A program made the position numbers and the translations under genes. The notes beneath the pieces are model-generated. The model was not told the origin of the DNA and did no database searches. It saw nothing but the letters and a program-made list of their open reading frames with translations. DNA of 50,582 bases from a virus (taxonomy: Duplodnaviria; Caudoviricetes): positions 1 to 50,582 of the IMG/VR virus record IMGVR_UViG_3300044718_000018; one strand, given 5' to 3'. Below are positions 14,298 through 42,493 of the stretch, piece after piece (within the stretch, counting starts at the first letter, position 1; the number at the start of each line of letters is the position of its first letter).

Positions 14298-14435
14298 ATG
14301 AAACGGGTTCCTTTTAACGCTAACGAAAAAGATGAGTCGCGGCTAGAAGATCTGACAAAGAAGCTTGGAATTACCGTGACCGCTGTTATTCGTGAAGCAA
14401 TTCGAGATATGCACAAGAAAGAGATAGGCAAATGA
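14298..14435 (+). CDS. ribbon-helix-helix (CopG-like) regulator, 45 aa, not in ORF track
   Basis: MKRVPFNANEKDESRLEDLTKKLGITVTAVIREAIRDMHKKEIGK; TACTAT 5 nt upstream; ATGA-coupled to next gene. Confidence 0.8.
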   Translation: MKRVPFNANEKDESRLEDLTKKLGITVTAVIREAIRDMHKKEIGK

Positions 14436-15115
14436 AAGTTATACGTGCAGTGCTGCTCATTCTGTTCTCGTCTCTGAGTCTGGCTGCTCAAAACCTATAT
14501 TGCACCGGTGATACCTGCACGTCTTCTCTGCCGGATGGAAACGTTATTACATGCCGCCACTATCCAAATGGTGAGCTAGAATGCTTCGACTCTACAGCCG
14601 ATGTTAATTTTCAGGCATGGCGGAAGCGACAGATTGAATCATTCCGCAAGCCAGGCATGACTGACAAACAAGCTGAAGCGGCTTTTGAAGCAGCTATGAA
14701 CAAAGAGCCAGCATCCGTTCTCGCGGCACGCCATGAGTTATGCAATAAAGGCATCTTAAAAGCTGACCGCTGTGATTTCTCAGAAGATCACTCTCTGGGA
14801 TACAAAAAGCTTGAAACCCCGTCGCCTCGCTATTCTGAAGGAACGCCGGATGAATTAGCAGCAGCAGAGAAAGACGGGAAGGCGTCCAAATGCATCATCA
14901 ATATCTATCCAGACGGTGCCGATGTTTATCTGGACGATGTGAAGATCGGCGTTTCTCCGCTGCCACTTCTTACGCTGACTCAGCATGAAAAGCCGAGAGC
15001 ATTGCTTATCAAGATGACCGGCTACAAGGATGAATCTCTAGCAATCAACCCCGATGGGTCCATTAAATCTATCGGAGTTTCTCTAAAAAAACAGCAAATT
15101 GCAGACCACACCTAA
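14432..15115 (+). CDS. secreted protein with C-terminal PEGA domain
   Basis: Signal peptide ...SLAA|Q; I...PDGADVYLDD..IG.SP...IK..GY. Confidence 0.8.
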   Translation: MKVIRAVLLILFSSLSLAAQNLYCTGDTCTSSLPDGNVITCRHYPNGELECFDSTADVNFQAWRKRQIESFRKPGMTDKQAEAAFEAAMNKEPASVLAARHELCNKGILKADRCDFSEDHSLGYKKLETPSPRYSEGTPDELAAAEKDGKASKCIINIYPDGADVYLDDVKIGVSPLPLLTLTQHEKPRALLIKMTGYKDESLAINPDGSIKSIGVSLKKQQIADHT

Positions 15116-15191
15116 ACAATAACGGCCAGCCCGGATGCTTCAACATCCGAACCGGCCTAACCGTAACTCGGGGTGATAAGGACCCCAAATC

Positions 15192-15779
15192 ATGGCTAAA
15201 AATATTTTACTCGCTCTTGTCATTTCTTCCGCGCTGTTTCTTGGCTGCGGATCATCTACACTTTCACAACTCAATCCAATCAACCCACCAGCCGTTAGCG
15301 CGTCATCTCTGCCCGTTGGCTGCGATGCGACAGGAACCTGCGTTGGCACCGTGAACCACACCTGGGGGTATTGCCAGTACAGCGTCTATCAGACTGCTCA
15401 AACTTTTGTTCTTGCACTGGAAATCGGCATTTCTTCCACTCCAACAGACCCCAGCGATTCACTCTGCTATGTGCCGATGGCTACAGGTGGAATCATAAAA
15501 TCAATCAGCGGCAATACAAACTATGTGCCGTGGACTGCCAACCTGAGCAGCATGTTCCTTGACGTTCGCGCCTGCACAAATGTGGGCTGCACATGGCCAG
15601 CCGGACAAGAGCACATTGCCTCTCAGAAATATATGGTGAAAGGCGCGCCACAATCTTTGCCTCTATCTGGTTCATTCACAAATGGCATCAGCACAAATGG
15701 CTTCATGGTGGTTTTTAACGATGATCTTAATGTTAAGCCCACAACCATCAGCGTTGCTTTTGCTGGAACTTTTCAGTAG
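15192..15779 (+). CDS. lipoprotein, Cys-paired beta-rich
   Basis: Signal peptide with LFLGC lipobox. Confidence 0.8.
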   Translation: MAKNILLALVISSALFLGCGSSTLSQLNPINPPAVSASSLPVGCDATGTCVGTVNHTWGYCQYSVYQTAQTFVLALEIGISSTPTDPSDSLCYVPMATGGIIKSISGNTNYVPWTANLSSMFLDVRACTNVGCTWPAGQEHIASQKYMVKGAPQSLPLSGSFTNGISTNGFMVVFNDDLNVKPTTISVAFAGTFQ

Positions 15780-15943: not shown

Positions 15944-16150
15944 ATGAAAGAAGCACCAAAGGACGGGGCAACCGTAACCAAATTTTCGGATGGCTCACTG
16001 CATGTGGTCTGCAATCAATGTGGTGCTGATTTATTTATGGTTGAAAGCGTGAGAGGCGCAATCTTCAATATTGGCCGCGTTTCAGATCATTACCACGATG
16101 TTCACGGTAGACCCTACCAGAATACAGCCATTATACCCCCTCAATCTTAA
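15944..16150 (+). CDS. C2H2-like zinc-binding small protein
   Basis: CNQC...H...H. Confidence 0.6.
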   Translation: MKEAPKDGATVTKFSDGSLHVVCNQCGADLFMVESVRGAIFNIGRVSDHYHDVHGRPYQNTAIIPPQS

Positions 16151-17784
16151 TTCTCTCGCGTCAGCCAAGCATCACAGGCGTAAACCGATGTTCCGAACGT
16201 TCCTGACACATTCAGGTTAACCGCGCCTGAAGTTGGATGAATCGGGAATATTCCGTTGTCGTAGCCCGTAATGGTCGTTGAATTTAGGGCGATGGCTGCC
16301 AATGTTAAAGTTTTTGTTCCGCCCGCGTCTGTCCATGAAATCGTAGGCGTTGCTGTTGTCCCGGTGCCACTGGTGGTGGTTATACAAGATGCATGAGCGC
16401 TGTATGTTCCCGCAGAAATGTCCGTTCCAATCGTGCCAATCGCCGAATTTGTGATAGCTGCCGTTTGGCCAGTAAGGTGTTTTGGGGTGCCTGTTATAAC
16501 CTGAATGCACAGATCCGCGCAGGTGATTCCTTGCAGCGGCGTAGCAAGGGTTTTGGCGCTTAAGATCTGCGTAAGGCCGTCTTCAATGATGGTGCCAGAG
16601 CCTACTGGGAAAGTTACAACGCTTGTACCAGCTGCGGCTCCAGACTTAACCGTTGTGGTGCCAGAGGTTGAACCATTAAATACAAGCCCCGTACCTGGTA
16701 TTGGTGAATTGGTGGTTCCGCATGAAAAGCTATCAGAGCTTTGAGTGTAATTGAGATGATTTCCGGATGAGTCCTGGCAGTCTGGAATCGTTTTATAGGT
16801 GACCACGTTTGCAGCCGTGGCCACACCAACTTGATGAGCTGCTACACCCACCGGATAACTTACTCCATTGAGTGAACCAACCCATACGGGCTGTGCAGTG
16901 CCGCCCGCATCAAACATGAAAAACTGCATAGTGCAGGACAATGCCGCGCCGGGAATGGTAGTCCATCCGCCAACGTTTGCTGGGGGAACGAAGGTGCGTC
17001 CACCGGTGGCATCCTGACAAACCTCTATTGCCAAGGGCTCACCCGCAACGGCGTTAGAAAGCGTTGAACTGGTAACGTTGGCCGTCAAGGTGATCTTGAA
17101 CGCTGAAGAGACAGAAGCGTCAAAAGTGGGAGTGGCAGAAAAGGTAACTGTGGTCATTCCGCCGATGCGGCAATCCGTGCGCGAAGTCCCGGCATTATCA
17201 GAGCAGGTGATTCCAGCGGTGACGTTGAAGGCAGTTCGCTGTGTAAGCCCCGTACCGCCGCTGAAAATCTGTTGAAGGATGCTTGATGGAATATTTGAGC
17301 CTGTCACGGTCCCCGTGGCTGCCACGTTACCAGTAACACTCAGATTGCCAGTGACAGAGTTTCCGGTGAGCGGAGCCGGACTGCCCAGATTCAGAGGCGC
17401 GTAGTTATCAAAATTGAACGTTGCTCCTGTGAAAGAAACGGTCGTATAGCGCAGCACTTCCAAGCCTGAGGACGAATCTTTCACGGTGACGCGATAATAG
17501 ATGCCGCTGGGCAAGGTGGCTGAGGGATTCGGCACGGTAAAGCCGGTAATGACTCCTGCAGTTACAGGAGAGCAGTATCCCCGCTTGAGCGCCTGGCCGC
17601 CGCCGCCGATGGATACTGAAATGGGCTGATCGCTCTGGTCAGTGATGAGAAAGCACACCTGCCCCGCTGCCAGTTTGGTTCCGTTGATGTCAGTGATGTT
17701 TGAGCCTGAAACCGTGGTCAAATTCTGGCCGCGCGCGCCGATAGACAGACACACGAATGCGACGAATACTAGAAGTTTTTTCAA
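16147..17784 (-). CDS. tail fibre / receptor-binding protein with N-terminal signal peptide
   Basis: Follows tail-tip gene; GGGAG RBS plus TTG; Stf-N-like VSG..TD..G start, GNLSVTGNV repeat, TLTANVT..SN...G...QDATGGRT fibre domain. Confidence 0.75.
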   Translation of the reverse strand: MKKLLVFVAFVCLSIGARGQNLTTVSGSNITDINGTKLAAGQVCFLITDQSDQPISVSIGGGGQALKRGYCSPVTAGVITGFTVPNPSATLPSGIYYRVTVKDSSSGLEVLRYTTVSFTGATFNFDNYAPLNLGSPAPLTGNSVTGNLSVTGNVAATGTVTGSNIPSSILQQIFSGGTGLTQRTAFNVTAGITCSDNAGTSRTDCRIGGMTTVTFSATPTFDASVSSAFKITLTANVTSSTLSNAVAGEPLAIEVCQDATGGRTFVPPANVGGWTTIPGAALSCTMQFFMFDAGGTAQPVWVGSLNGVSYPVGVAAHQVGVATAANVVTYKTIPDCQDSSGNHLNYTQSSDSFSCGTTNSPIPGTGLVFNGSTSGTTTVKSGAAAGTSVVTFPVGSGTIIEDGLTQILSAKTLATPLQGITCADLCIQVITGTPKHLTGQTAAITNSAIGTIGTDISAGTYSAHASCITTTSGTGTTATPTISWTDAGGTKTLTLAAIALNSTTITGYDNGIFPIHPTSGAVNLNVSGTFGTSVYACDAWLTREN

Positions 17785-17802
17785 TGTTTTCTCCCTGAAA
17801 AA

Positions 17803-20694
17803 TTACATGCCCGGCAGCGGACGCCCCGGAGCGCCTGAGCCGCCACCTACGCCGCCGCCCTGACCGCCGCCGGTGCCACCTGTACCACTGGAATTGACTG
17901 TGGTAACGATGCTTAAGCGCATCTGGCCGCGACCCACAGCTTGAACGTAATTGTTGTATTGCAACCAAGCACGGTGAGTGCTTTGGTCAAAGTCATACGA
18001 AACCCAATAGGTAGTTGAAACTTGCGGGGCGGCGCCAGTCTCTTCAACTACCGTGATGGTCTGCGCTGGAATCGTGCGCGTGGTCTGATCCCTTTTCCAT
18101 GCGGTGTATGAAGCTCCCACCGAAGCGCCATAAACCCGGATGCTATCCGCCGAACCTGATACAAAGACTGAATCCACGGTGGCATTGTTCGCCGGCGGAT
18201 CGCCGATGTTTCCAAAGGTCCCATTGAATCCGAAGCTGTACGGCGTGGCATTGGCTAAAGATTGTTCCATCAGCCCAAAAGTATTAAAACTTGTGAACTT
18301 GAAAGAGATGGTGGTTCCTACCAAAGTAGGATCAGCTTCCCAGACGAAAACGCCGTCGTCCAAACGAAGGAATTGAGCGCCGATGTTATGAGTGGTAATC
18401 GGCGCGCCAAAAACGCCTCTGCGCAACCGAGTTCCCAGGTTGTAATGAAAAGAACTAGTCAGGCTGGCTGTCTGGAAGCTGACTAATTCTCCATCAACAA
18501 AGCAGATGGTTCTAAAGTTGTCCGCGTCGGCTGCCAGGCCGCCCGCCAGGGTGCCCAGAGATTGAGTAACGTCTACTGCCAACGTGTGAGTGGTATCAGG
18601 GTCAGCGGAAGAGACAAGCTGCGCTGTAAGCGCTCCCATACGCGAAGGGCCGTATATTGTGCCAACCTTCACATAGTTGGTTCCGTCCGGAGAAACCCAA
18701 ACCGAGCAACCGCCCCAGTCCGCATTGACGGCCACGCCGCCCGAGGTGTAAGCGCCTGAGCCCACGGAATTATTCAGCGTAAAGTTGCTGGAATCTACCG
18801 CTGTAACCGTCCAGTTACCGTTTGCCGCGGTATTCCCGCCAACCGCGGCAATCGTCACTTTTTGGCCGTTCTTATAGCCGTGGCCTGCCGCCGTGATCTG
18901 GATAGGCGTGGCATTGGAAGCCGCCGTAATGGCCACGGTGGGCCCGCATGCGCCAATCCATACCTCATAGTTGCCAGTGAGTGAGAGCCGATCATTCGCC
19001 TCAAAGATAACGGGCGTTGAAATAGAGCCCGGATCAGAATTGGCTTGGGTGACGAATCCAGCGCCTGTCTGATGCGGGTAAAGCGTCGGGGTAGCAGTGC
19101 CCCACGGGAAATCTTCCGCATCAATTTCAATCTGTCCGGAATCGTCTTCGCGCATGGCTGTGATGCGCACCGGCTTTTTGTTGTAGCCCAGTTCTGGAAT
19201 GGTCAGCGTTACCAGGTCCATCGGCTCAAGCAGGTTAAATTGCCAGCCCAGAGTGAACGTGTAGGTTGCCCTGATTTCAACATTGCGCTTGCGAATGAGG
19301 TTGGCCGCGAATTTTGCCACTGCGGCAGTGGTGATCTGATGCGCCGTTATGGGGTCGGCTTTTCTCAGCCCATATTGCGCAATCATGGCATCATCTTTAT
19401 CTTCGGCAATGTCCGGGTTGTAATCGAGCGCGCGATTAGAGAACTCAATACTCACATCGTTCATTACGTCTGCCACGGATGGCCGCTTAATCAACACCTG
19501 GGTTAGCAGATCAGAGGTGGTCAGATCATAAATGGGCGTGGTATTGGGAATGAATGTTGCGCCGTTGCCCACGGCAGTTGTGTCCGCATAAGGAATGATC
19601 TTTAGAACGCCTTCACTCCACACTGCCGCCGCATTGGTAACGTCAAGAATGCTCTGTATCCATGCACTCGCGGCTTGCTGAGAATCAAGCACGGGCGACA
19701 TAAACAGCCCGTTTGCTGTACAGAAGTTGCGGTATTGCGTGAGGTCGCCGGGAGTGATTACGCCACCCATGGCATAGAACGGATTGGCCAGCAGATCAGC
19801 AACTATGGCCGATGGTTCCGCGTCGGTAATTCCGGCGCCAAACGGAAGCAATCCTAAAACTTCAAAGCTAAGATTTGGTAGCGTGCCTGATTCGCCTAAA
19901 TCCATCGCAGAAGCGGCAACGTAAGCTATTCCGTTATAGCCAAGATCCTGACCGGGATGCGCCGAGGTGAGATAAGACCATGGCGTCTGTGGACGTGAGC
20001 CAGTAAAGAGCGTCAGGCTCAATTTGCTTACCGGATCGCCGTTAGAGTTGGAATCAGGAACGGAATAAACGTAACTTATCGTCATCTGCTTTCCGGCATC
20101 AGCAGCAGAGAAAGTAAACGTTGCGCCCGATTGTGTATACTGCCCCGCGCCGGGAGAGCTTCCAACCAGCGCCATGCGGGTTTGCTGATTGCCGATGAAG
20201 CTTTTTGAGCCGTCAGAGCCAAAATCATTCTGACTGAAACTGAAAGCGTCCAGCCGTCCAATGCCGGTATGCAACTTGAAGATTCCCGTACCCGGTGGCG
20301 CAATGGTGGTCGAGCCCCCCGGACCAGGCACGGTAAATGTCTGCGTAGTGGAAATGAGCGTCAGTTTGCCCTTGGTGTCCCACACGTTGCCGATGTTGAC
20401 GATTTGCCCAACACACAGGCCCATGGCCACAGCAGTCTGATAGGTGTACGTGGTGTTTGAGATGGCATTGCCGCCGCCCGAGCCCAAGCCCTTGCCGCCC
20501 ACTTTGGTTGTGCTGGTGTGCGGGATGGAGGTGAAATCACCAGCCCAGAGCAGCCGCGCAGCAATGCGGAACTGGCCATAGCCAATAGGCATTCCTTGAC
20601 CATACGAGCTGGTCTGAACATTCAGCGCCTTTAAAATATTGGGAGTTGAGGCGAGAGCATTCTTGCCCCCGCCTTTCCCGCCAGTCATTCCCAT
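17803..20694 (-). CDS. large tail tip / baseplate protein (GTA-type, phage-tail_3-like)
   Basis: QTSSYG..MPIGYG, AYVAA..MDLG....LPNLSFEV, LEPMDLVTL, LRRGVFG...H..GA.F.RLD; synteny. Confidence 0.9.
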   Translation of the reverse strand: MGMTGGKGGGKNALASTPNILKALNVQTSSYGQGMPIGYGQFRIAARLLWAGDFTSIPHTSTTKVGGKGLGSGGGNAISNTTYTYQTAVAMGLCVGQIVNIGNVWDTKGKLTLISTTQTFTVPGPGGSTTIAPPGTGIFKLHTGIGRLDAFSFSQNDFGSDGSKSFIGNQQTRMALVGSSPGAGQYTQSGATFTFSAADAGKQMTISYVYSVPDSNSNGDPVSKLSLTLFTGSRPQTPWSYLTSAHPGQDLGYNGIAYVAASAMDLGESGTLPNLSFEVLGLLPFGAGITDAEPSAIVADLLANPFYAMGGVITPGDLTQYRNFCTANGLFMSPVLDSQQAASAWIQSILDVTNAAAVWSEGVLKIIPYADTTAVGNGATFIPNTTPIYDLTTSDLLTQVLIKRPSVADVMNDVSIEFSNRALDYNPDIAEDKDDAMIAQYGLRKADPITAHQITTAAVAKFAANLIRKRNVEIRATYTFTLGWQFNLLEPMDLVTLTIPELGYNKKPVRITAMREDDSGQIEIDAEDFPWGTATPTLYPHQTGAGFVTQANSDPGSISTPVIFEANDRLSLTGNYEVWIGACGPTVAITAASNATPIQITAAGHGYKNGQKVTIAAVGGNTAANGNWTVTAVDSSNFTLNNSVGSGAYTSGGVAVNADWGGCSVWVSPDGTNYVKVGTIYGPSRMGALTAQLVSSADPDTTHTLAVDVTQSLGTLAGGLAADADNFRTICFVDGELVSFQTASLTSSFHYNLGTRLRRGVFGAPITTHNIGAQFLRLDDGVFVWEADPTLVGTTISFKFTSFNTFGLMEQSLANATPYSFGFNGTFGNIGDPPANNATVDSVFVSGSADSIRVYGASVGASYTAWKRDQTTRTIPAQTITVVEETGAAPQVSTTYWVSYDFDQSTHRAWLQYNNYVQAVGRGQMRLSIVTTVNSSGTGGTGGGQGGGVGGGSGAPGRPLPGM

Positions 20695-21123: not shown

Positions 21124-21550
21124 TTTTCACCTCAAAAAATTTCATTTCCCTGCCAATCAATTCGCCGTCTCGGAGCGCGTCGCCCAGCAGAACTCCGTGC
21201 GGGATGTAGCTGTGAATAATGATTGGCCAGTCCACCACGATTGCGCCGTGAGAAAATGCGCGCCCGAATTTGAAGACAATGAAATCACCGGGCAGTGGCG
21301 ATTCTGTTTTCTCAACACAAAAAGGTTCAATCGTCTGAAGATACTTTTCTTCAGAATGGTGCAGGTGCCATTGCATGGAATAATCCGGCGGCACGAAATC
21401 AGCCGGAAGAATGCCGCACTCCTGATACACGGCCAGCGGAAACATGGCGCAATCCACGCCACAGCCTTTTACTTTGCCCATGTGGTGGTAGGGCGTGCGC
21501 AACCACTCTTTTGCTGCCTTGACCACTTGCGCGCGCTTATCGGCTGTCAG
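21107..21550 (-). CDS. NlpC/P60 tail-tip peptidase (probable CTG start at 21550)
   Basis: W..TPYHH....G.GVDC...PGD...F.....H.AI......IHS; GGAG RBS before CTG overlapping upstream TGA. Confidence 0.9.
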   Translation of the reverse strand: MTADKRAQVVKAAKEWLRTPYHHMGKVKGCGVDCAMFPLAVYQECGILPADFVPPDYSMQWHLHHSEEKYLQTIEPFCVEKTESPLPGDFIVFKFGRAFSHGAIVVDWPIIIHSYIPHGVLLGDALRDGELIGREMKFFEVKSGTTA

Positions 21551-22413
21551 ATTGCCGTCTCCGGAACAGGTATGTACGGGAAGCCCTCAAAGTTCACCAG
21601 ATTGGAAAACTTGTTCGTGCAGGTGGCCTGTGTTTTGTCGCAACCTGGATAAGCCGTGAACAAGTCGCCAGCACTGGGTGTGAACGGCAGCGGAGAATTG
21701 AAAGTGAACTGCTGCCCCAGATATTGCTTGACGGCTTTTACCAGTCCGGCATTTGCGCCGGTGGTAAAAACAAGCTGGCCGTTATCGTAATAGTCATCGG
21801 CTTTGGCAGAGAGTGAAATCAGTTTGTTGACCGTGCTTCCAGCTTGTACCGTGTTCGCTTCCGCGAAAGCTGCTTTGCTCAATCTACAGCGCGCATCAAA
21901 GAGAGTGTTTGTGCAGCCCGGCTGAAGAATGATTTGCGGCAACTGCATCGTCAGAAGTTCAGTACCGGAGTTCACTGTGATCTTGGCATAGCTCCTGCTC
22001 AATTCATCCACTGGCCCGACGAAGCCAGAGAAGCGGATCACCGTACCGATCTGCACGCCGGTTGCATCCATGAAGAGCCGCTCAACCTTGAAGGCAGCGC
22101 CATCAAATAGCCCAAGCCCGATGGCCTGAAGTATGGGAACGCCGTTCAGAAGATCAGAGAGGCTGGCCAGAATCGTAACTTCAATGGTGGAAACATCCAT
22201 ACCGATCTGCTCTTCAATGGCAGTGCGTGAGATGTCCGGAGGCCCGGTCAGGAACTTATTGCCCAGCACGGTAAGCGTAGTGTCCCATGTGGTGTATCTG
22301 AGCACCGTTCCGCCAACCAGAGTGATGGTGTAAAGGTCAGCCATGCGGAACTCAGTATTGTTGGCGAGGAACGTGATCAGGTTGTTGCCGCCGATGTTGG
22401 TGGGGGTCTTCAA
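21547..22413 (-). CDS. baseplate hub protein (DUF2163 / BR0599 family)
   Basis: C...LFD..C and PGCDK...TC..KF.N..NF.GFP.IP motifs. Confidence 0.9.
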   Translation of the reverse strand: MKTPTNIGGNNLITFLANNTEFRMADLYTITLVGGTVLRYTTWDTTLTVLGNKFLTGPPDISRTAIEEQIGMDVSTIEVTILASLSDLLNGVPILQAIGLGLFDGAAFKVERLFMDATGVQIGTVIRFSGFVGPVDELSRSYAKITVNSGTELLTMQLPQIILQPGCTNTLFDARCRLSKAAFAEANTVQAGSTVNKLISLSAKADDYYDNGQLVFTTGANAGLVKAVKQYLGQQFTFNSPLPFTPSAGDLFTAYPGCDKTQATCTNKFSNLVNFEGFPYIPVPETAI

Positions 22414-22414
22414 T

Positions 22415-23086
22415 TTATTTCCTCACGCTGATTAGCTGCACTTCTTTGCACTCATAAAGCTGGTAATAGAAGTTGGAAAACTCAATTCCTTCACGCGTCC
22501 CGCTGGAGGCTGAAGAGTTGCTGCGGGCTGTGCCCAGATCGAAGCGGACACGATGCAGAAAAGTAAAATCTGCTGTGATGGCTGCGTTCAAAGCTGGTGC
22601 CACGGTGAAGGTAACGAGCCCCAGAGAAACGGTGTAATCCGTGGTTGGAGTTTTCTTTACCCCTGCCACATAGACCGTTACGCCCGCTGGATTCTGGCAT
22701 GCTTCCAGAAAGCCGCCGAAGTTACGAACAAGTTGAAAGTTGAGCGTAACGCCGTCGCCTATCCCTATCGGCTGGCCTGAAAAAACAGAGTCCTCTAAGC
22801 GTTGCGTGAGGTCGCTTTCATTCAAAAGGAAATCATCAAACTGTCCACCGCGCGAAAGGAAAAAGCCGACAAGCTGCTCCAGTGGAGTAGAGCCTGTATC
22901 ATCTCGAAACCGGGGATCATTTAAAAGGTATTCGTAAGTGAGAGTAAATTCCCAGATGGGATTCTGAAAGTTCTGGATTCTCACCTCGCGTCCGGCAAGC
23001 GAGATTTGAATATCGGTTGAGAGCGTAGGATTCTTAACCACTTCCCATCCCAGGCCACGAATTTTGGGGAAGAGAATATTGCTCAC
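22415..23086 (-). CDS. distal tail protein (DUF2460 family)
   Basis: GRE.R, FF....GQ...F, IG.GDG....FQL.R, ITADF.F...RFD. Confidence 0.9.
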   Translation of the reverse strand: MSNILFPKIRGLGWEVVKNPTLSTDIQISLAGREVRIQNFQNPIWEFTLTYEYLLNDPRFRDDTGSTPLEQLVGFFLSRGGQFDDFLLNESDLTQRLEDSVFSGQPIGIGDGVTLNFQLVRNFGGFLEACQNPAGVTVYVAGVKKTPTTDYTVSLGLVTFTVAPALNAAITADFTFLHRVRFDLGTARSNSSASSGTREGIEFSNFYYQLYECKEVQLISVRK

Positions 23087-25254
23087 TGGCCAAAGCCTTT
23101 TTTCTTGAGCACCTTTGCCACCTTATTCCCCAGCATATTGCTGTGCCGATCAATCACACTTTCGAAAGAAGCTGCATCCATAGCCTGAACATTGTGGTGA
23201 ACAACTACGGTTATTCCGCCTCCTGACCCGCTGTAAGCTGCGCCCTGTTTACTGGCTGGAATCACCGTTTCACCTTTGTGAAGATAGGCAAGTCCATCCT
23301 GGGGAACGTAGTTGGTGCCAACGTCGTAAGAGCCCATAGACTCAACAGCGATGAAGGCGGCAGCTGCGATGGGAGCGGCCAGGACAGGGCCAACATATTG
23401 CGATGCCCAATCGAAGGATTTCTTGGCTGCATCATAGGCGGCACGCATGCCGCTTTTTGCATAGTACGCAGCATCCACAGCCTCTTTTGTGGCTGCATGC
23501 GCAATCATCTCAACCAACTGGCGCGCCAGCGATGCGATAAATTTAGCGGCCATGTTGTCAGCCATTTTTGCCCACGCCTGCCCCATGGTTTCAGTCCCTT
23601 GCAAAATTCCAGTGGCAAAGGTGCTGAACTCAGAAGAGATGCCCTGCACCATTTTTTGATACTGGGCCTGCGTTGCCTTTGTCTGATCCGTTACAGACTT
23701 GGTCGCGACCAGATTCCCCTGGGCAACTATCTTGTCAATCTGCGCCTGAATTTCAGCCTTCTTCTTTACGTCGCCATCCCAGAGCGCAAAACGCAACTGC
23801 TGATAACTTCTTTCTATAGCCAGTTCTGTTTCTTTGGCACCAGCAATCAATTTAACTTCCTGCTGCTGGGTGATCTGGCCCCTTTCAAAGCGTTGCTCGA
23901 TTAACTGAATCTGAATATCGCTATTTGTTTTGGCGGTAGCAATCTGCCCCTTATAACTTTCGTCCCACGCCTCAAGCTGTTTTTCGCTGCCTTTGAGCGC
24001 GGCTTGGTTCTGTTTCTCGATGTCGGCAATTGCTTCTTTGCTGGCACGGTCCGCCGCTTCCGTCTGGGCCTTCTCTCCGGATTCAGCTTCCTTGCGGATG
24101 GCCTGACCAGCCTGGCCTAGAACGTCCTGCAGTTTGCGCAGTTGTTCCGCTGCTGATTCCGCGCCCAGTAAATCGGAATGCTTAGCAAGTTCGGCTTGAG
24201 TTTTGCCGAAATTGGTCAGCATGATCTGAAGGCTGCGAAGCGTTTGATCTCGCTTGTCGTATTCGTTATTTACGTTCTTGAGCTGGGCTTCTAGCCCCTT
24301 TTCTTCCTCCTTTAGATAGGACGTTTGCTTCGCAGCGTTTTTGTCCGCATCAATAAACCCTTGGATCGCGCTGGCCTTTGTCTGCTGTGTTTTGGTATTG
24401 GCAGCAATCTGGTCATTCAAATATTTCTGGTAAGCTGCCACCTGCGTATTCAGTTCAGCCTGAAATTCCGCAGTCTGTCCTTTATTGTTCTGCGCCTGCG
24501 CAAGACGAAGTTTGGTCAAGGTTTCATCGACCTGCCCCTGATACTCTTTTACCTTGCTGAGGATGTCATTGATTCCAGAATCGCCAAACAGCAGCTTATT
24601 AAAAAGCCCCTGCTCCTGACTGGTAAGGAGTTCGTTTTCTTTTCCAATGGCATCCTGAAATGACTTGATCAGCTCTTCTACGGCACGCTTGCCTTCCATC
24701 GCGGCAATTGCAACGCCATTCTGGGCTGGTTTGCGCTCCAGGGTGCTGATATGATCCTGCAGTTTGAGATTACTGATCTGTACAGATTCAGCTTGTTTAT
24801 CGAACGAGAGGGAGAGGTCGAGGCTTTCACGAACGGCCTTAGCCATCTTCTCGCTGTGTGAATCCATCTTTTCCCCGGCCTTAAAGATGGAATCAGCAAA
24901 AGAGATGATGGCCACAACAGGAAAAGCAAGAGAGAATGCAGCGCCAAGTAAAGGCAATTCAGCCAGCCAGCGCGCAACATGACGGTTGACGGCAATGCCA
25001 GTGTCTTCAAATGCCAGCTTTAAGCCCCCTACGGCCTCGCTAGAGCGGCCAACATGGGCACGCGTGGAATCTTCAAGTTCAGCAAGTCGCACTTCTAGCG
25101 CGGAAATCTGGGCAGACGTATCGGCTTGCAACTTTGCAAAAGCACCAGTTATGTCCGCAAGGGCCTTTTCGGTAGCTGCCGCTGCCGCGTCCATCGCGGT
25201 TTTTAATTGTGAACCGTCAAAAACCGCTCCGACTTGTATCAGATTATCTGGCAT
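23083..25254 (-). CDS. tape measure protein
   Basis: 723-aa Ala/Gln/Lys-rich helical protein; C-terminal YDVGT.YVP.D....LHKGE.VIP. Confidence 0.9.
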   Translation of the reverse strand: MPDNLIQVGAVFDGSQLKTAMDAAAAATEKALADITGAFAKLQADTSAQISALEVRLAELEDSTRAHVGRSSEAVGGLKLAFEDTGIAVNRHVARWLAELPLLGAAFSLAFPVVAIISFADSIFKAGEKMDSHSEKMAKAVRESLDLSLSFDKQAESVQISNLKLQDHISTLERKPAQNGVAIAAMEGKRAVEELIKSFQDAIGKENELLTSQEQGLFNKLLFGDSGINDILSKVKEYQGQVDETLTKLRLAQAQNNKGQTAEFQAELNTQVAAYQKYLNDQIAANTKTQQTKASAIQGFIDADKNAAKQTSYLKEEEKGLEAQLKNVNNEYDKRDQTLRSLQIMLTNFGKTQAELAKHSDLLGAESAAEQLRKLQDVLGQAGQAIRKEAESGEKAQTEAADRASKEAIADIEKQNQAALKGSEKQLEAWDESYKGQIATAKTNSDIQIQLIEQRFERGQITQQQEVKLIAGAKETELAIERSYQQLRFALWDGDVKKKAEIQAQIDKIVAQGNLVATKSVTDQTKATQAQYQKMVQGISSEFSTFATGILQGTETMGQAWAKMADNMAAKFIASLARQLVEMIAHAATKEAVDAAYYAKSGMRAAYDAAKKSFDWASQYVGPVLAAPIAAAAFIAVESMGSYDVGTNYVPQDGLAYLHKGETVIPASKQGAAYSGSGGGITVVVHHNVQAMDAASFESVIDRHSNMLGNKVAKVLKKKGFGQ

Positions 25255-39103: not shown

Positions 39104-39811
39104 TTACTTCTTTCCCGTGAATGGGATAGAGATGCCCAGAATTTTTGCCTTGGGAACTGCGATCTTGGCTTTCTCCTGCGTGCTGCAAAGTTTATTCCAG
39201 TGCTTTGCAATGTCACGCGCTGAGAATTTGGGCTTGACGGAAGTTTTGATTACCTGCCCTGCCGGAGTTCCTTCAATGGCGATCATGTCTGTGCCCGAGA
39301 TGTGCCAGCCGTAGATGGCCGGAAGTTGCGTTTGCAGATTGAGTGCTACTGCCGCTGGCTGCTGGTTGACCAGGATGACGATGTTCTGCGCGATCAGGCC
39401 GATCAGGCCAGCGAAGCCGTTGACGATGCCTGCGGTCTTTGCGTCTTTGATTCCCACTGTTGAAACAATGCTCTGCAAGTTCGTCTGAATATCCAGCCAT
39501 GCCGCGTTGATCTTTTGCAGCACAGTGGGATTCGGGACTGCTGGGTTATAGCCGGCGATCAGTGACTCCAGTAGTTTGCCGTCTGCCGCAATCAGTGCCG
39601 CTGCTGGCCCGATGGCTGGCGCGTATTCCGGCGCAACCAACAGAGTGAGCCCGGTTGCCATCTGTGCGATCTGCGGAATCTGCTGGTCCAGGGTATCAAT
39701 CACCTGCACGATCTGGGCTTGTGAGCATCCGGCCATGGGGACAATGAGGCTGAAGATGGCGAGGAACAATGCCAATGAGCTGAGTAAACACTTATTTGCT
39801 GACGTTTTCAC
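39104..39811 (-). CDS. lipoprotein, helical (spanin-like role possible)
   Basis: Signal with MAGC lipobox; AGGAG RBS; located in lysis region. Confidence 0.7.
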   Translation of the reverse strand: MKTSANKCLLSSLALFLAIFSLIVPMAGCSQAQIVQVIDTLDQQIPQIAQMATGLTLLVAPEYAPAIGPAAALIAADGKLLESLIAGYNPAVPNPTVLQKINAAWLDIQTNLQSIVSTVGIKDAKTAGIVNGFAGLIGLIAQNIVILVNQQPAAVALNLQTQLPAIYGWHISGTDMIAIEGTPAGQVIKTSVKPKFSARDIAKHWNKLCSTQEKAKIAVPKAKILGISIPFTGKK

Positions 39812-40912: not shown

Positions 40913-41107
40913 CTATTTCGCGACGAGGGCTCTAGCTTCTTTGTGGGTGGCCCTGAATGCCTGAAACTGAATGAAATTGCGCCCGCGCTTATCTCGCACA
41001 ATTCGAAAATTCATCCGATGCAGCAGCCCACAATCGCAGCACTGCATGATGTAATTCTTCCGGCGGGGCTGAACCCACTCTCCCGGCTTCACCTGAGTGC
41101 ACTTCAT
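40913..41107 (-). CDS. small CCDCGL.H protein, paralogue 2
   Basis: GEWVQP...Y...CCDCGLLHRMNFR; ATGA overlap. Confidence 0.75.
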   Translation of the reverse strand: MKCTQVKPGEWVQPRRKNYIMQCCDCGLLHRMNFRIVRDKRGRNFIQFQAFRATHKEARALVAK

Positions 41108-41886
41108 GCGCTCGCCGCCTGCTTCTTAGCCAGAAAGCCGCATACCACTTCCCAGCACGCCCCTGATCTGAAATAGTCGCCATGCAGATCAACTGGATTC
41201 AGCTCTGCTGGTAGCAAGCCAATACAGTTAACCGATTGGCAGTTCTCAGGTGCATGTCCCGCGCCCACCAAGCCAAGCCTTGCGCCAAGGTGAATAATTC
41301 CTGAGCCCAGCAACGCGCCATCCGCCGGGCAGTACATCACCAGAACTTTGTTGCTCATCTCTGCGATGTTTGAGGTATTCAGCGCATCAAAGGGAACGTC
41401 TGCCGCCACCATCACAAGTTTGTCCACACACGGCGCTGTGCCGGCGGATTCCAGGGCTTTCTGTAACAGGAAATTGCCCATGCTGTGAGCAATTACGTTC
41501 GGGCATTCCAGATCCCGCAGGCATTGCAGCAAGTCTGTTGCGCTGCGCTCTGCTTGCACGCGATCCTCAAGGTATTCGAGAATGTTGCCCTGAGATGGCC
41601 ACGAATAGCCGACGAGCGTTACATCTGGGCCCAGTCCATCGAATACAGCCTGCATCACGTCCATATCTCGCTGCCACGATTCGTTGAAGCCGTGAATGAA
41701 AAGAACGACTGGCTTGCCTTGGGCCTTGATGTCCGCAAGTGCGATCGATCGATCTACGGGCATCCAGTCGATTGTCTGATCGAAAGGCTTACCCGGGGCG
41801 CTCCACCATGTATTCCCAAAGGCGTTACGCTCTGAGCTGAATTGTCCCGGCTGGTACTTCCGGTTGGTACAGAGAAAGATGCTCAC
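41104..41886 (-). CDS. alpha/beta hydrolase (DUF900-like esterase/lipase)
   Basis: LFIHGFN, YSWPS.G, AHSMGN nucleophile elbow, AADV, D.AL..S, H..YF. Confidence 0.88.
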   Translation of the reverse strand: MSIFLCTNRKYQPGQFSSERNAFGNTWWSAPGKPFDQTIDWMPVDRSIALADIKAQGKPVVLFIHGFNESWQRDMDVMQAVFDGLGPDVTLVGYSWPSQGNILEYLEDRVQAERSATDLLQCLRDLECPNVIAHSMGNFLLQKALESAGTAPCVDKLVMVAADVPFDALNTSNIAEMSNKVLVMYCPADGALLGSGIIHLGARLGLVGAGHAPENCQSVNCIGLLPAELNPVDLHGDYFRSGACWEVVCGFLAKKQAASA

Positions 41887-41891
41887 GGAAG

Positions 41892-42092
41892 TTAGAATTT
41901 CCCACCCTTGGTGCGATGTTTTATGCGGAATGCCTGCATGAGAACACGTGCTTTACCCTCGCTATCAATCCTCACGCGAAAGTTCATGCGATGGACTAGG
42001 CCGCAATCACAGCAAGCCAGCAGATAGCCTTTCATTTGCGGCTGCACCCACTCTCCCGCTTTCACCTTCTTGAACTTCTTTGGAATCTTCAG
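41892..42092 (-). CDS. small CCDCGL.H protein, paralogue 1 (66 aa, CTG start), not in ORF track
   Basis: KIPKKFKKVKAGEWVQPQMKGYLLACCDCGLVHRMNFRVRIDSEGKARVLMQAFRIKHRTKGGKF; CTG overlaps upstream TGA. Confidence 0.75.
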   Translation of the reverse strand: MKIPKKFKKVKAGEWVQPQMKGYLLACCDCGLVHRMNFRVRIDSEGKARVLMQAFRIKHRTKGGKF

Positions 42093-42493
42093 GCTTCCGC
42101 CTCTGTGTACGTGATAGTGATTGCTTCCCCGCGCTCTACTGCGTCTGTCATCAACAAAAAGAGCCGATCAAATGCCTGCTTACTGCCGCCGATGAAGTCA
42201 GGGTTTGGGCCTGGACCATAGCCCACAAGTAGACATCCTTCCGTATCTTTCGGGAAGTTGCCGATGTGAATTTCTATTTCTTCAAAGCCGGGGACATTGA
42301 GCACATGAGGCAGCAATCTTTCGTGCTTCGGACTCCACAGAATCTCTACGTCATAGCTGCCCAGTGGTATGCAGCAGGGCTTTTCGTCGCGCTTCGGAGG
42401 CTCAAGGCAAAAGCCGAACTGCTCTCCATTTACGGCCAAATTGCCGACAGTAGAGAGCGCTGTAAATGTGTGCCGCGTGACAAGAAGGTTCAC
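42089..42493 (-). CDS. DUF5675-family L,D-transpeptidase-like protein, endolysin candidate
   Basis: T.G.L...G.....LE, CIP.G.Y, SPK, VPG...I.IH.GN...DTEGCLLVG. Confidence 0.85.
   Translation of the reverse strand: MNLLVTRHTFTALSTVGNLAVNGEQFGFCLEPPKRDEKPCCIPLGSYDVEILWSPKHERLLPHVLNVPGFEEIEIHIGNFPKDTEGCLLVGYGPGPNPDFIGGSKQAFDRLFLLMTDAVERGEAITITYTEAEA

Follow-up and report, generated by a model that had tools for sequence, protein, structure and literature searches.

How does a tailed phage come to carry a tail-fibre gene whose product starts like a secreted protein, when by the textbook all tailed-phage parts fold and assemble in the reducing cytoplasm? The question is raised by one gene in the virus record IMGVR_UViG_3300044718_000018 (Duplodnaviria; Caudoviricetes), which is linear, 50,582 bases long and ~90% complete according to CheckV; this whole stretch was analysed and is called the window below. 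The phage is best explained as a temperate RcGTA-type siphophage from soil with a Candidatus Angelobacter-like host among the Terriglobia (Acidobacteriota), given that the relatives' names and 12 genome loci point to Candidatus Angelobacter and other Terriglobia. We argue that the gene encodes a receptor-binding side fibre made as a Sec precursor, and we give this reading as a whole, docking onto the particle included, a probability of roughly 60%; export and periplasmic disulfide formation, taken by themselves, appear well supported by sequence comparison and are very likely.

The gene, its translation signal and the segment that raises the question are as follows:

16147..17784, minus strand: fibre gene, 545 amino acids (aa), TTG start
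17791..17795, minus strand: Shine-Dalgarno-like GGGAG, 6 nt ahead of the TTG at 17784..17782
17728..17784, minus strand: leader, residues 1-19, a Sec/signal peptidase I-type signal peptide with predicted cleavage between ARG and QN

The TTG lies 18 nt after the TAA stop (17805..17803) of the preceding tail-tip gene, in one and the same frame, and is the first possible start because that TAA stands in frame upstream and none of the six intervening codons is a start codon. A first-pass annotation of the sequence had placed the fibre gene behind a tail-tip gene with a GGGAG plus TTG start, which stands, the upstream gene being a PF13550/PF23666 tail-tip protein; it had also put the next in-frame ATG ~200 codons further on, and the first internal methionine is indeed residue 210. 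We regard the start site as strongly supported.

The leader, MKKLLVFVAFVCLSIGARG followed by QN, begins with MKK (two lysines), continues with an uncharged hydrophobic core and ends with alanine at -3 and glycine at -1, ahead of Gln20 at +1. It has no twin arginine that would indicate a Tat signal and no lipobox ([LVI][ASTVI][GAS]C), its C12 following A-F-V and occurring in 50/115 relatives only. Of the 8000 candidates scored in a word-index search, 486 are relatives at E<=1e-3, and the best 120 of these provide the leader statistics. The mature N-terminal motif is present in 118/120 of them, the two without its standard form being P0104 (leader present, motif variant) and P0107 (frameshifted); with 4/118 excluded for clipped N-termini, 114 relatives have 15 or more residues before the motif. 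By home-made heuristics for signal peptides and cleavage sites, the leader is hydrophobic in 114/114 (10-residue Kyte-Doolittle maximum 2.0-3.4), residue -1 is A89/G8/S8/C5/P4, residue -3 is A54/L20/G15/S12/V11/M2, and residue +1 is Gln in 114/114. Pairwise identity is 27% over the last 20 leader residues vs 83% over the first 60 mature residues. Because the sequence drifts while the pattern is kept, and because conservation starts at Gln +1, we consider the leader to be a signal peptide and not a structural segment. Metagenome contigs agree: 36 domain 1 loci were found, of which 34 could be read upstream, and a leader is present in 33/34 (locus L112 being broken, and a stop or frameshift occurring in L085 and L113). 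The earlier description of a textbook signal peptide is therefore upheld on the n-region, the h-region, the A-x-G site, Gln +1 and 114/114 relatives, and the case that homologues lack the leader is contradicted by every relative with a complete N-terminus. A Sec-type leader is strongly supported.

Behind the leader the protein divides into five parts:

17410..17727, minus strand: domain 1, residues 20-125, a conserved beta-sandwich with C44/C71, predicted local distance difference test score (pLDDT) ~85; presumed docking domain
17173..17409, minus strand: linker or shaft, residues 126-204, G/S/T-rich, with the end hairpin C194-C205 (C188 in other relatives)
16885..17172, minus strand: domain 2, residues 205-300, a beta-sandwich with invariant C256/C284, pLDDT ~90
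16498..16884, minus strand: middle, residues 301-429, mosaic, with C336/C355, C422/C426 and one common fibre repeat motif
16150..16497, minus strand: distal tip, residues 430-545, a C1q/TNF-like jelly roll with C467/C537; presumed receptor-binding head

Of the protein's 13 cysteines, one (C12) belongs to the leader and the other 12 to the mature part (44, 71, 194, 205, 256, 284, 336, 355, 422, 426, 467 and 537); both the count of exactly 12 and the arrangement in six local pairs match what the first-pass annotation had described. The mature fibre has a cysteine density of 2.28 per 100 aa; eight other phage proteins encoded in the window, seven from the virion plus TerL (the large terminase), range over 0-1.39. 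In alignment A1, which holds 115 relatives (the 120 minus four near-duplicates and P0107), C44, C71, C256 and C284 are invariant (115/115) and form two pairs inside single domains, and Q20 is invariant as well. C194 is present in 114/115, with a partner that is either C188 (64 relatives) or C205 (50 relatives) and never both, and the single relative with neither C188 nor C205 also has no C194; C336 and C355 occur together in 27 relatives and are both missing in 88. The mature cysteine count is even in 106/114 relatives (binomial p 6e-23), and in the AlphaFold2 (AF2) model the paired cysteines sit in strands of one confident domain. That the cysteines would behave as disulfides is, on this comparative evidence, strongly supported. 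N-glycosylation sequons show no enrichment in the fibre (10 NxS/T vs 7.1 +/- 2.2 in shuffles, 286/2000 of which reach 10).

Leader and cysteine pairs also travel together. Searched with a profile, 1.84 billion representatives yielded 7982 matches at E<=1e-3, the best 150 of which were used, and hidden Markov models (HMMs) of domains 1 and 2, built from A1, were run over 265 proteins. Among these, C44/C71 are kept in 199/206 leader-bearing copies of domain 1, whereas the only full-length leaderless forms (P0166, P0182 and P0229) all lack both cysteines (3/3; Fisher p 8e-5, a value that overstates independence, as the leaderless forms may be few evolutionary events). These three begin with Met exactly at the mature start and have 67-71% identity to leader-bearing forms, their contigs measuring 45.8, 32.7 and 10.4 kb; other leaderless-looking rows are clipped gene calls. 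In domain 2, C256/C284 are kept in 149/153 leader-bearing copies and missing in 7/7 copies of four leaderless proteins, with two apparent exceptions, P0181 (an uncharged leader) and P0207 (a fragment). For the tip, C467/C537 are kept in 8/10 leader-bearing vs 0/2 leaderless relatives, one of which, P0277, is entirely free of cysteine. The link holds in three unrelated domains: leaderless full-length relatives are always without the domain's pair. Moreover, since a leaderless, Cys-free domain 1 exists, its partner should be reachable from the cytoplasm, and that partner would be the baseplate.

On the host side, DsbA-like enzymes are predicted from matches to PF13462 Thioredoxin_4 above cut-off in 3/3 host metagenome-assembled genomes (MAGs). 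In 400 kb of host MAG G001 (L040-L059), scanned crudely for leader-like ORFs, Gln is the commonest +1 residue behind the predicted signal-peptidase sites (17/61 vs 6.6% at +4 to +8), so that the invariant Gln +1 of the fibre fits host usage. On this crude heuristic from one genome, a 'Q-rule' may hold outside Bacteroidota; the accessible text of the paper on the Bacteroidetes 'Q-rule' makes no mention of Acidobacteria (PMC5837995). The phage's own exported genes also begin their mature parts with Gln. The suggestion of the first-pass annotation that the fibre is exported and disulfide-bonded has thus gained strong comparative support from leader conservation, cysteine parity, partner alternation, cysteine loss in leaderless forms and the host's DsbA-like genes.

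Whether the exported protein is a part of the virion is a separate question, and here the surroundings of the gene matter most:

17803..20694, minus strand: tail-tip 'megatron' gene, 963 aa, upstream of the fibre gene; presumed docking partner on the particle
21547..25254, minus strand: rest of the RcGTA-type tail-tip module, with tape measure 23083..25254, DUF2460 22415..23086 and baseplate hub 21547..22413

On the minus strand of the window a replication block is followed by a standard late operon in the order small and large terminase, portal, Mu-F-like, protease-like, major-capsid-like, adaptor, Neck1, tube-like and tape measure genes, which continues with the DUF2460 distal tail protein, a BR0599-type hub, the 963-aa megatron and finally the fibre gene. 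Pfam matches identify the distal tail protein (PF09343, 1.1e-30), the hub (PF09931, 4.6e-31, and PF09356, 2.9e-25) and the megatron (PF13550 Phage-tail_3, 1.4e-23; PF23666 Rcc01698_C, 1e-10); the module of DUF2460, hub and megatron, in this order, is of the RcGTA type. Promoter and terminator counts in the 18-nt gap between megatron and fibre are at chance level only. Given the shared frame and the mere six sense codons between the two genes (window 17782-17805), read-through of the stop would fuse megatron and fibre. We rejected such a fusion, as the sole apparent fusion protein, P0107, ends in frameshifted junk.

The same arrangement recurs in relatives, the fibre following tape measure, DUF2460, hub and megatron on the same strand in 17/22 IMG/VR loci, and two further IMG/VR loci hold two or three tandem leader-bearing paralogues. 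In L018 (5101-9725) and L019 (7114-11879) the tandem fibres each have their own leader and domain 1 and differ in their distal parts, and in L018 a leader-bearing ORF (open reading frame) of 221 aa lies between them. A megatron stands upstream in 27/45 genome and metagenome loci, several of which repeat IMG/VR contigs; of the remaining 18, 11 extend <2.5 kb upstream of the gene. In the host's order, domain 1 turned up in 6/401 genomes (among them G236, which is unpublished), a sporadic distribution and therefore the pattern of a mobile element, not of a core family of surface proteins.

Among relatives the N-terminal half is conserved and the remainder mosaic, composed of independent modules each with its own cysteine pair, and the tip is common to fibres with other N-termini. 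The AF2 monomer has a mean pLDDT of 63.5 and is confident for domains 1 and 2 only; the tip modelled alone reaches a mean of 69.6, with residues 30-146 at ~80. The tip model matches C1qA (Z 9.1, root-mean-square deviation (rmsd) 3.1, 108 aa; 13 chains at Z>=8), the C-terminal domain of the Bd2133 fibre (Z 8.6, rmsd 3.6, 116 aa), the needle of cyanopodophage Pan3 (Z 8.3) and PRD1 P5 (Z 8.2). The C1q/TNF-like fold typically caps trimeric fibres. In BFVD there are 86 matches at E<=1e-3, many of them named tail fiber, fiber or minor tail protein, and the nearest ESM Atlas clusters are viral, with scores of 0.85-0.88 that fall under the 0.9 mark and serve as leads only. Two of the eight relatives scanned (P0009 and P0017) carry PF21722 Gly_rich_2, others carry PF26209 (Phage_phiTE_241_C) in precomputed annotation, and a PDB sequence search with the fibre gave a chance match only (E 0.45). 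The fibre-type modules that the first-pass annotation had seen in the mature part are borne out by the C1q/TNF-like jelly roll of the tip and by domain 2, which caps a T7-type fibre. The short fibre motif of the middle part occurs once in the window protein (profile positions ~413-481), and the giant proteins P0123, P0168, P0178 and P0179 (2100-3600 aa, no leader) contain 25-49 repeats of it. Gene position, modular architecture and fold likeness suggest that the fibre is probably a virion protein.

We propose the following route. The fibre would be translated from the TTG within the late tail operon, as the spacing suggests, and very probably exported unfolded through Sec, with signal peptidase I, to judge from the -3/-1 pattern, cutting after ARG and before Gln20; the invariant Gln would thereby be exposed and able to cyclise. 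Folding and presumed trimerisation would take place in the periplasm, where host DsbA-like enzymes would, with high probability, close the six local disulfides. At lysis, when the holin joins the two compartments, domain 1 would dock the fibre to the baseplate of particles assembled in the cytoplasm, and the C1q/TNF-like tip would bind the host receptor; docking and binding are the steps that we call probable and no more. A fibre waiting in the envelope may also occupy receptors from within. Docking at lysis, or a second role as receptor blocker, is what the first-pass annotation had suggested, and this half of its reading draws on gene position, modular architecture and fold likeness. Late docking is mechanically plausible because T4 and P22 fibres and tailspikes attach to finished particles in vitro.

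Carried over to the lineage, the route would amount to a two-compartment assembly in Acidobacteriota siphophages, in which heads and tails are built in the cytoplasm whereas fibres are exported by Sec, trimmed to an N-terminal (pyro)Gln, oxidised by host Dsb enzymes and trimerised in the periplasm and snapped on via domain 1; we put this generalization at even odds. The chances are similarly balanced that fibres held in the envelope can blind the receptor until the holin opens the inner membrane, and that domain 1 can switch between a cytoplasmic and a periplasmic route, for which the leaderless, Cys-free sister fibres speak.

Several points weigh against virion membership or soften the evidence for export. 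Phage and host are both uncultured, the signal-peptide and cleavage calls come from heuristics of our own, and no lysis cassette was recognised in the window. Pfam, PHROGs and NCBIfam searches of the fibre return 0 families, a Foldseek search of the whole model against the PDB returns 0 matches at E<=1e-3, and VIA-align gives middling scores both for domain 2 (Z 7.1, to a tailspike) and for domain 1 (Z 5.7, to a neck fibre). Seven leader-bearing copies of domain 1, four of domain 2 and two tips are without the pair; the contrast with the leaderless forms may reflect few evolutionary events, and leaderless domain 1 loci number none in the viral contigs, the metagenome contigs and the 401 host-order genomes. 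Genes are inserted between megatron and fibre in some relatives, and a distant leader-bearing group (38-50% identity; L107-L112 and L020-L022) does not lie beside a megatron. In L110 (3000-11800) and L021, a 9-kb island that extends from the large terminase to the portal holds a leader-bearing fibre relative of 691 aa, two further leader-bearing Cys-rich ORFs and, on the opposite strand, a 425-aa phrog_14837 gene; these distant relatives between terminase and portal look like accessory cargo.

Such islands suit an alternative that we consider possible though not probable, namely that the exported fibre never joins the virion and is an adhesin or receptor binder that acts in the cell envelope during infection or lysogeny, resembling the trimeric MAT (mosaic adhesive trimer) proteins of Bdellovibrio. 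It might there mask or clog receptors (as superinfection exclusion, or so that progeny are kept off debris), bind or loosen the capsule, or serve the lysogen as an adhesin, roles that we rate as tentative; domain 1 would in that case bind an element of the host surface or periplasm and not the baseplate. The evidence for export and disulfides fits this alternative equally well, the window's downstream neighbours are exported cargo genes, and distant relatives share their island with other leader-bearing ORFs. Adsorption can be achieved by a megatron or J-type tip protein without further help, so that this phage need not have side fibres. Further, the tip model matches the C-terminal domain of Bd2133 (Z 8.6), and MAT proteins, according to the accessible text of PMC10769870, share the layout of the fibre while being cell-surface proteins unrelated to virions, which also counts against our account. 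Set against this are the position of the gene on the late strand, 18 nt past the megatron stop with promoter signals at chance level, and the tail-module synteny in 17/22 viral loci. A leaderless, Cys-free domain 1 would be pointless if the domain bound a surface element from outside, and domain 2 and the tip both occur in leaderless proteins, in the case of domain 2 in a bona fide T7-type fibre; by eye only, the start of leaderless P0277 resembles that of a leaderless fibre-like ORF of L060. Finally, domain 1 is sporadic (6/401 genomes), as opposed to 21 MAT paralogues per Bdellovibrio genome.

Two other explanations would remove the export step itself. One, which we consider improbable, takes the N-terminus for an uncleaved signal-anchor or a buried assembly helix, with the fibre folding in or at the cytoplasm like ordinary fibres. 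AF2 does draw residues 2-15 as a helix, cleavage is itself a prediction, and Pro stands at -1 in 4/114 relatives; however, a docking helix would be conserved in sequence, whereas the leader drifts freely (27% identity) with its pattern and the small residues at -3/-1 kept and conservation setting in from Gln +1, and the link of the leader with disulfide-type cysteines in three domains would have no counterpart in a cytoplasmic protein. The other, that the leader is an artefact of annotation and translation truly begins at codon 22 or at another site, draws on the fact that this codon is an internal TTG and is very improbable. Codon 22 has no Shine-Dalgarno-like motif ahead of it, in contrast to the first TTG with its GGGAG at a distance of 6 nt, and the leader frame is open and hydrophobic in 114/114 relatives and 33/34 metagenome loci. 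The start at codon 22, which the first-pass annotation had named as a way in which its reading could fail, is not conserved as a start, since many relatives read QNW (Trp) there. A receptor-binding side fibre made as a Sec precursor and added to the particle at lysis remains our preferred account.

The genes next to the fibre gene are read from the other strand:

14432-15115, plus strand: cargo gene, 227 aa, leader LAA before QN, weak PEGA match
15192-15779, plus strand: cargo gene, 195 aa, lipoprotein-like (LGC)
15124-15157: 15-bp hairpin between both cargo genes

Both cargo genes are convergent to the fibre gene, and the 22 viral loci contain relatives of neither. Elsewhere in the window, a DUF5675 gene (42089-42493) and a DUF900 gene (41104-41886) lie upstream of the terminase, and there is a lipoprotein-like ORF at 39104-39811; the endolysin-, holin-, integrase- and HNH-like ORFs of the relative L001 have no match anywhere in the window. 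At L060 (8646-9203, minus strand) an ORF of 185 aa with the leader AFA before QN and several cysteines adjoins a leaderless fibre of an unrelated phage type. Exported fibre partners may be more widespread than the present family. We considered homology between domain 1 and the N-terminal part of that leaderless L060 fibre and rejected it as unsupported (BLASTP E 0.031; hhalign aligned the fibre repeat motif only). A lookup of sequencing runs by sampled sequence words listed no RNA run and one DNA run with a quarter of the words.

That a large natural family of fibres combines export signals with disulfide-type cysteines implies that host-recognition proteins have a route of maturation through the periplasm, and the leaderless, Cys-free sister forms of the family are a built-in control. 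If these fibres join the particle, morphogenesis spans two compartments and reaches completion only with lysis, the Sec, signal peptidase and Dsb functions of the host become phage host factors, and disulfide-hardened fibres would suit the harsh soil habitat. If they stay off it, phages carry MAT-like envelope fibres, which are likewise undescribed. Such fibres would misfold under cytoplasmic expression, and annotation pipelines in which a signal peptide counts against a place in the virion would get them wrong; conversely, a leader together with paired cysteines could pick out the receptor-binding proteins of uncultured soil phages.

How, then, does the fibre compare with known systems? In its position it resembles siphophage side fibres (lambda Stf after gpJ; RcGTA-type baseplate fibres), which stand likewise after the tip gene and have a conserved N-terminal docking part and a mosaic receptor-binding C-terminus, as here; tandem paralogues occur in some relatives of the fibre. 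Siphophage side fibres, which are not known to carry a signal peptide, have few cysteines, fold in the cytoplasm and often have a chaperone gene downstream; unlike at those, no chaperone gene was seen at the fibre gene. Among 50,697 cultured-phage records, the only match is to domain 2, in Macromonas phage BK-30P (OR420333.1, Autographiviridae), where the C-terminal ~95 aa of the fibre are homologous to it (56% identity, residues 214-269, E 9e-7). Because the BK-30P protein carries PF03906 Phage_T7_tail (2.3e-14), domain 2 forms part of a genuine fibre of the virion there. It differs in that the BK-30P fibre is leaderless and without C256/C284, and in that domain 2 is terminal there and mid-protein in the window fibre. 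In BK-30P, whose record is unannotated (L115 4642-7043), the fibre gene is followed by a gene for a glycine-rich GP38-like adhesin (PF05268, 4.1e-10). The pairing of a fibre with a GP38-like adhesin is known from T-even phages.

Tailed phages do export proteins, among them signal-peptide and signal-arrest-release (SAR) endolysins, the T4 antiholin RI and the lipoproteins Llp and Cor. Like the fibre, these late or accessory phage proteins are exported through the host's Sec pathway and function in the envelope; they differ from it in being small lysis or exclusion factors and not modular, fibre-shaped proteins in the tail-fibre position. No description of a tailed-phage fibre with an export signal was found in the accessible literature, subscription-only papers and supplements lying outside the search; none is mentioned in the available text of PMC3556154, PMC12210884, 10.64898/2026.09.13.751334, PMC8143477 and PMC5723332, and for the P22 tailspike a legend in the preprint 10.64898/2026.09.13.751334 says that there is no export signal.

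The nearest likeness in design lies outside phages, in the MAT fibres of Bdellovibrio bacteriovorus (for example Bd2133 and Bd2439), of which the accessible text of PMC10769870 reports 21 per genome, on the cell surface, with an N-domain that has no PDB homologue. As far as that text goes, and in design only, the two have in common a signal peptide, a beta-rich conserved N-domain (~110-130 aa in MAT proteins), modules like those of phage tail fibres and swappable tips, among them TNF-like jelly rolls with disulphides, as the match of our tip to Bd2133 (Z 8.6) illustrates. They differ in that MATs are chromosomal genes of a predatory bacterium, whereas the fibre gene lies in a phage after the tail-tip gene, its domain 1 occurring in 6/401 genomes. 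What is new in the fibre, beside all of these systems, is its Acidobacteriota host, its place beside an RcGTA-type tail module and the way in which leader and cysteines go together in three domains.

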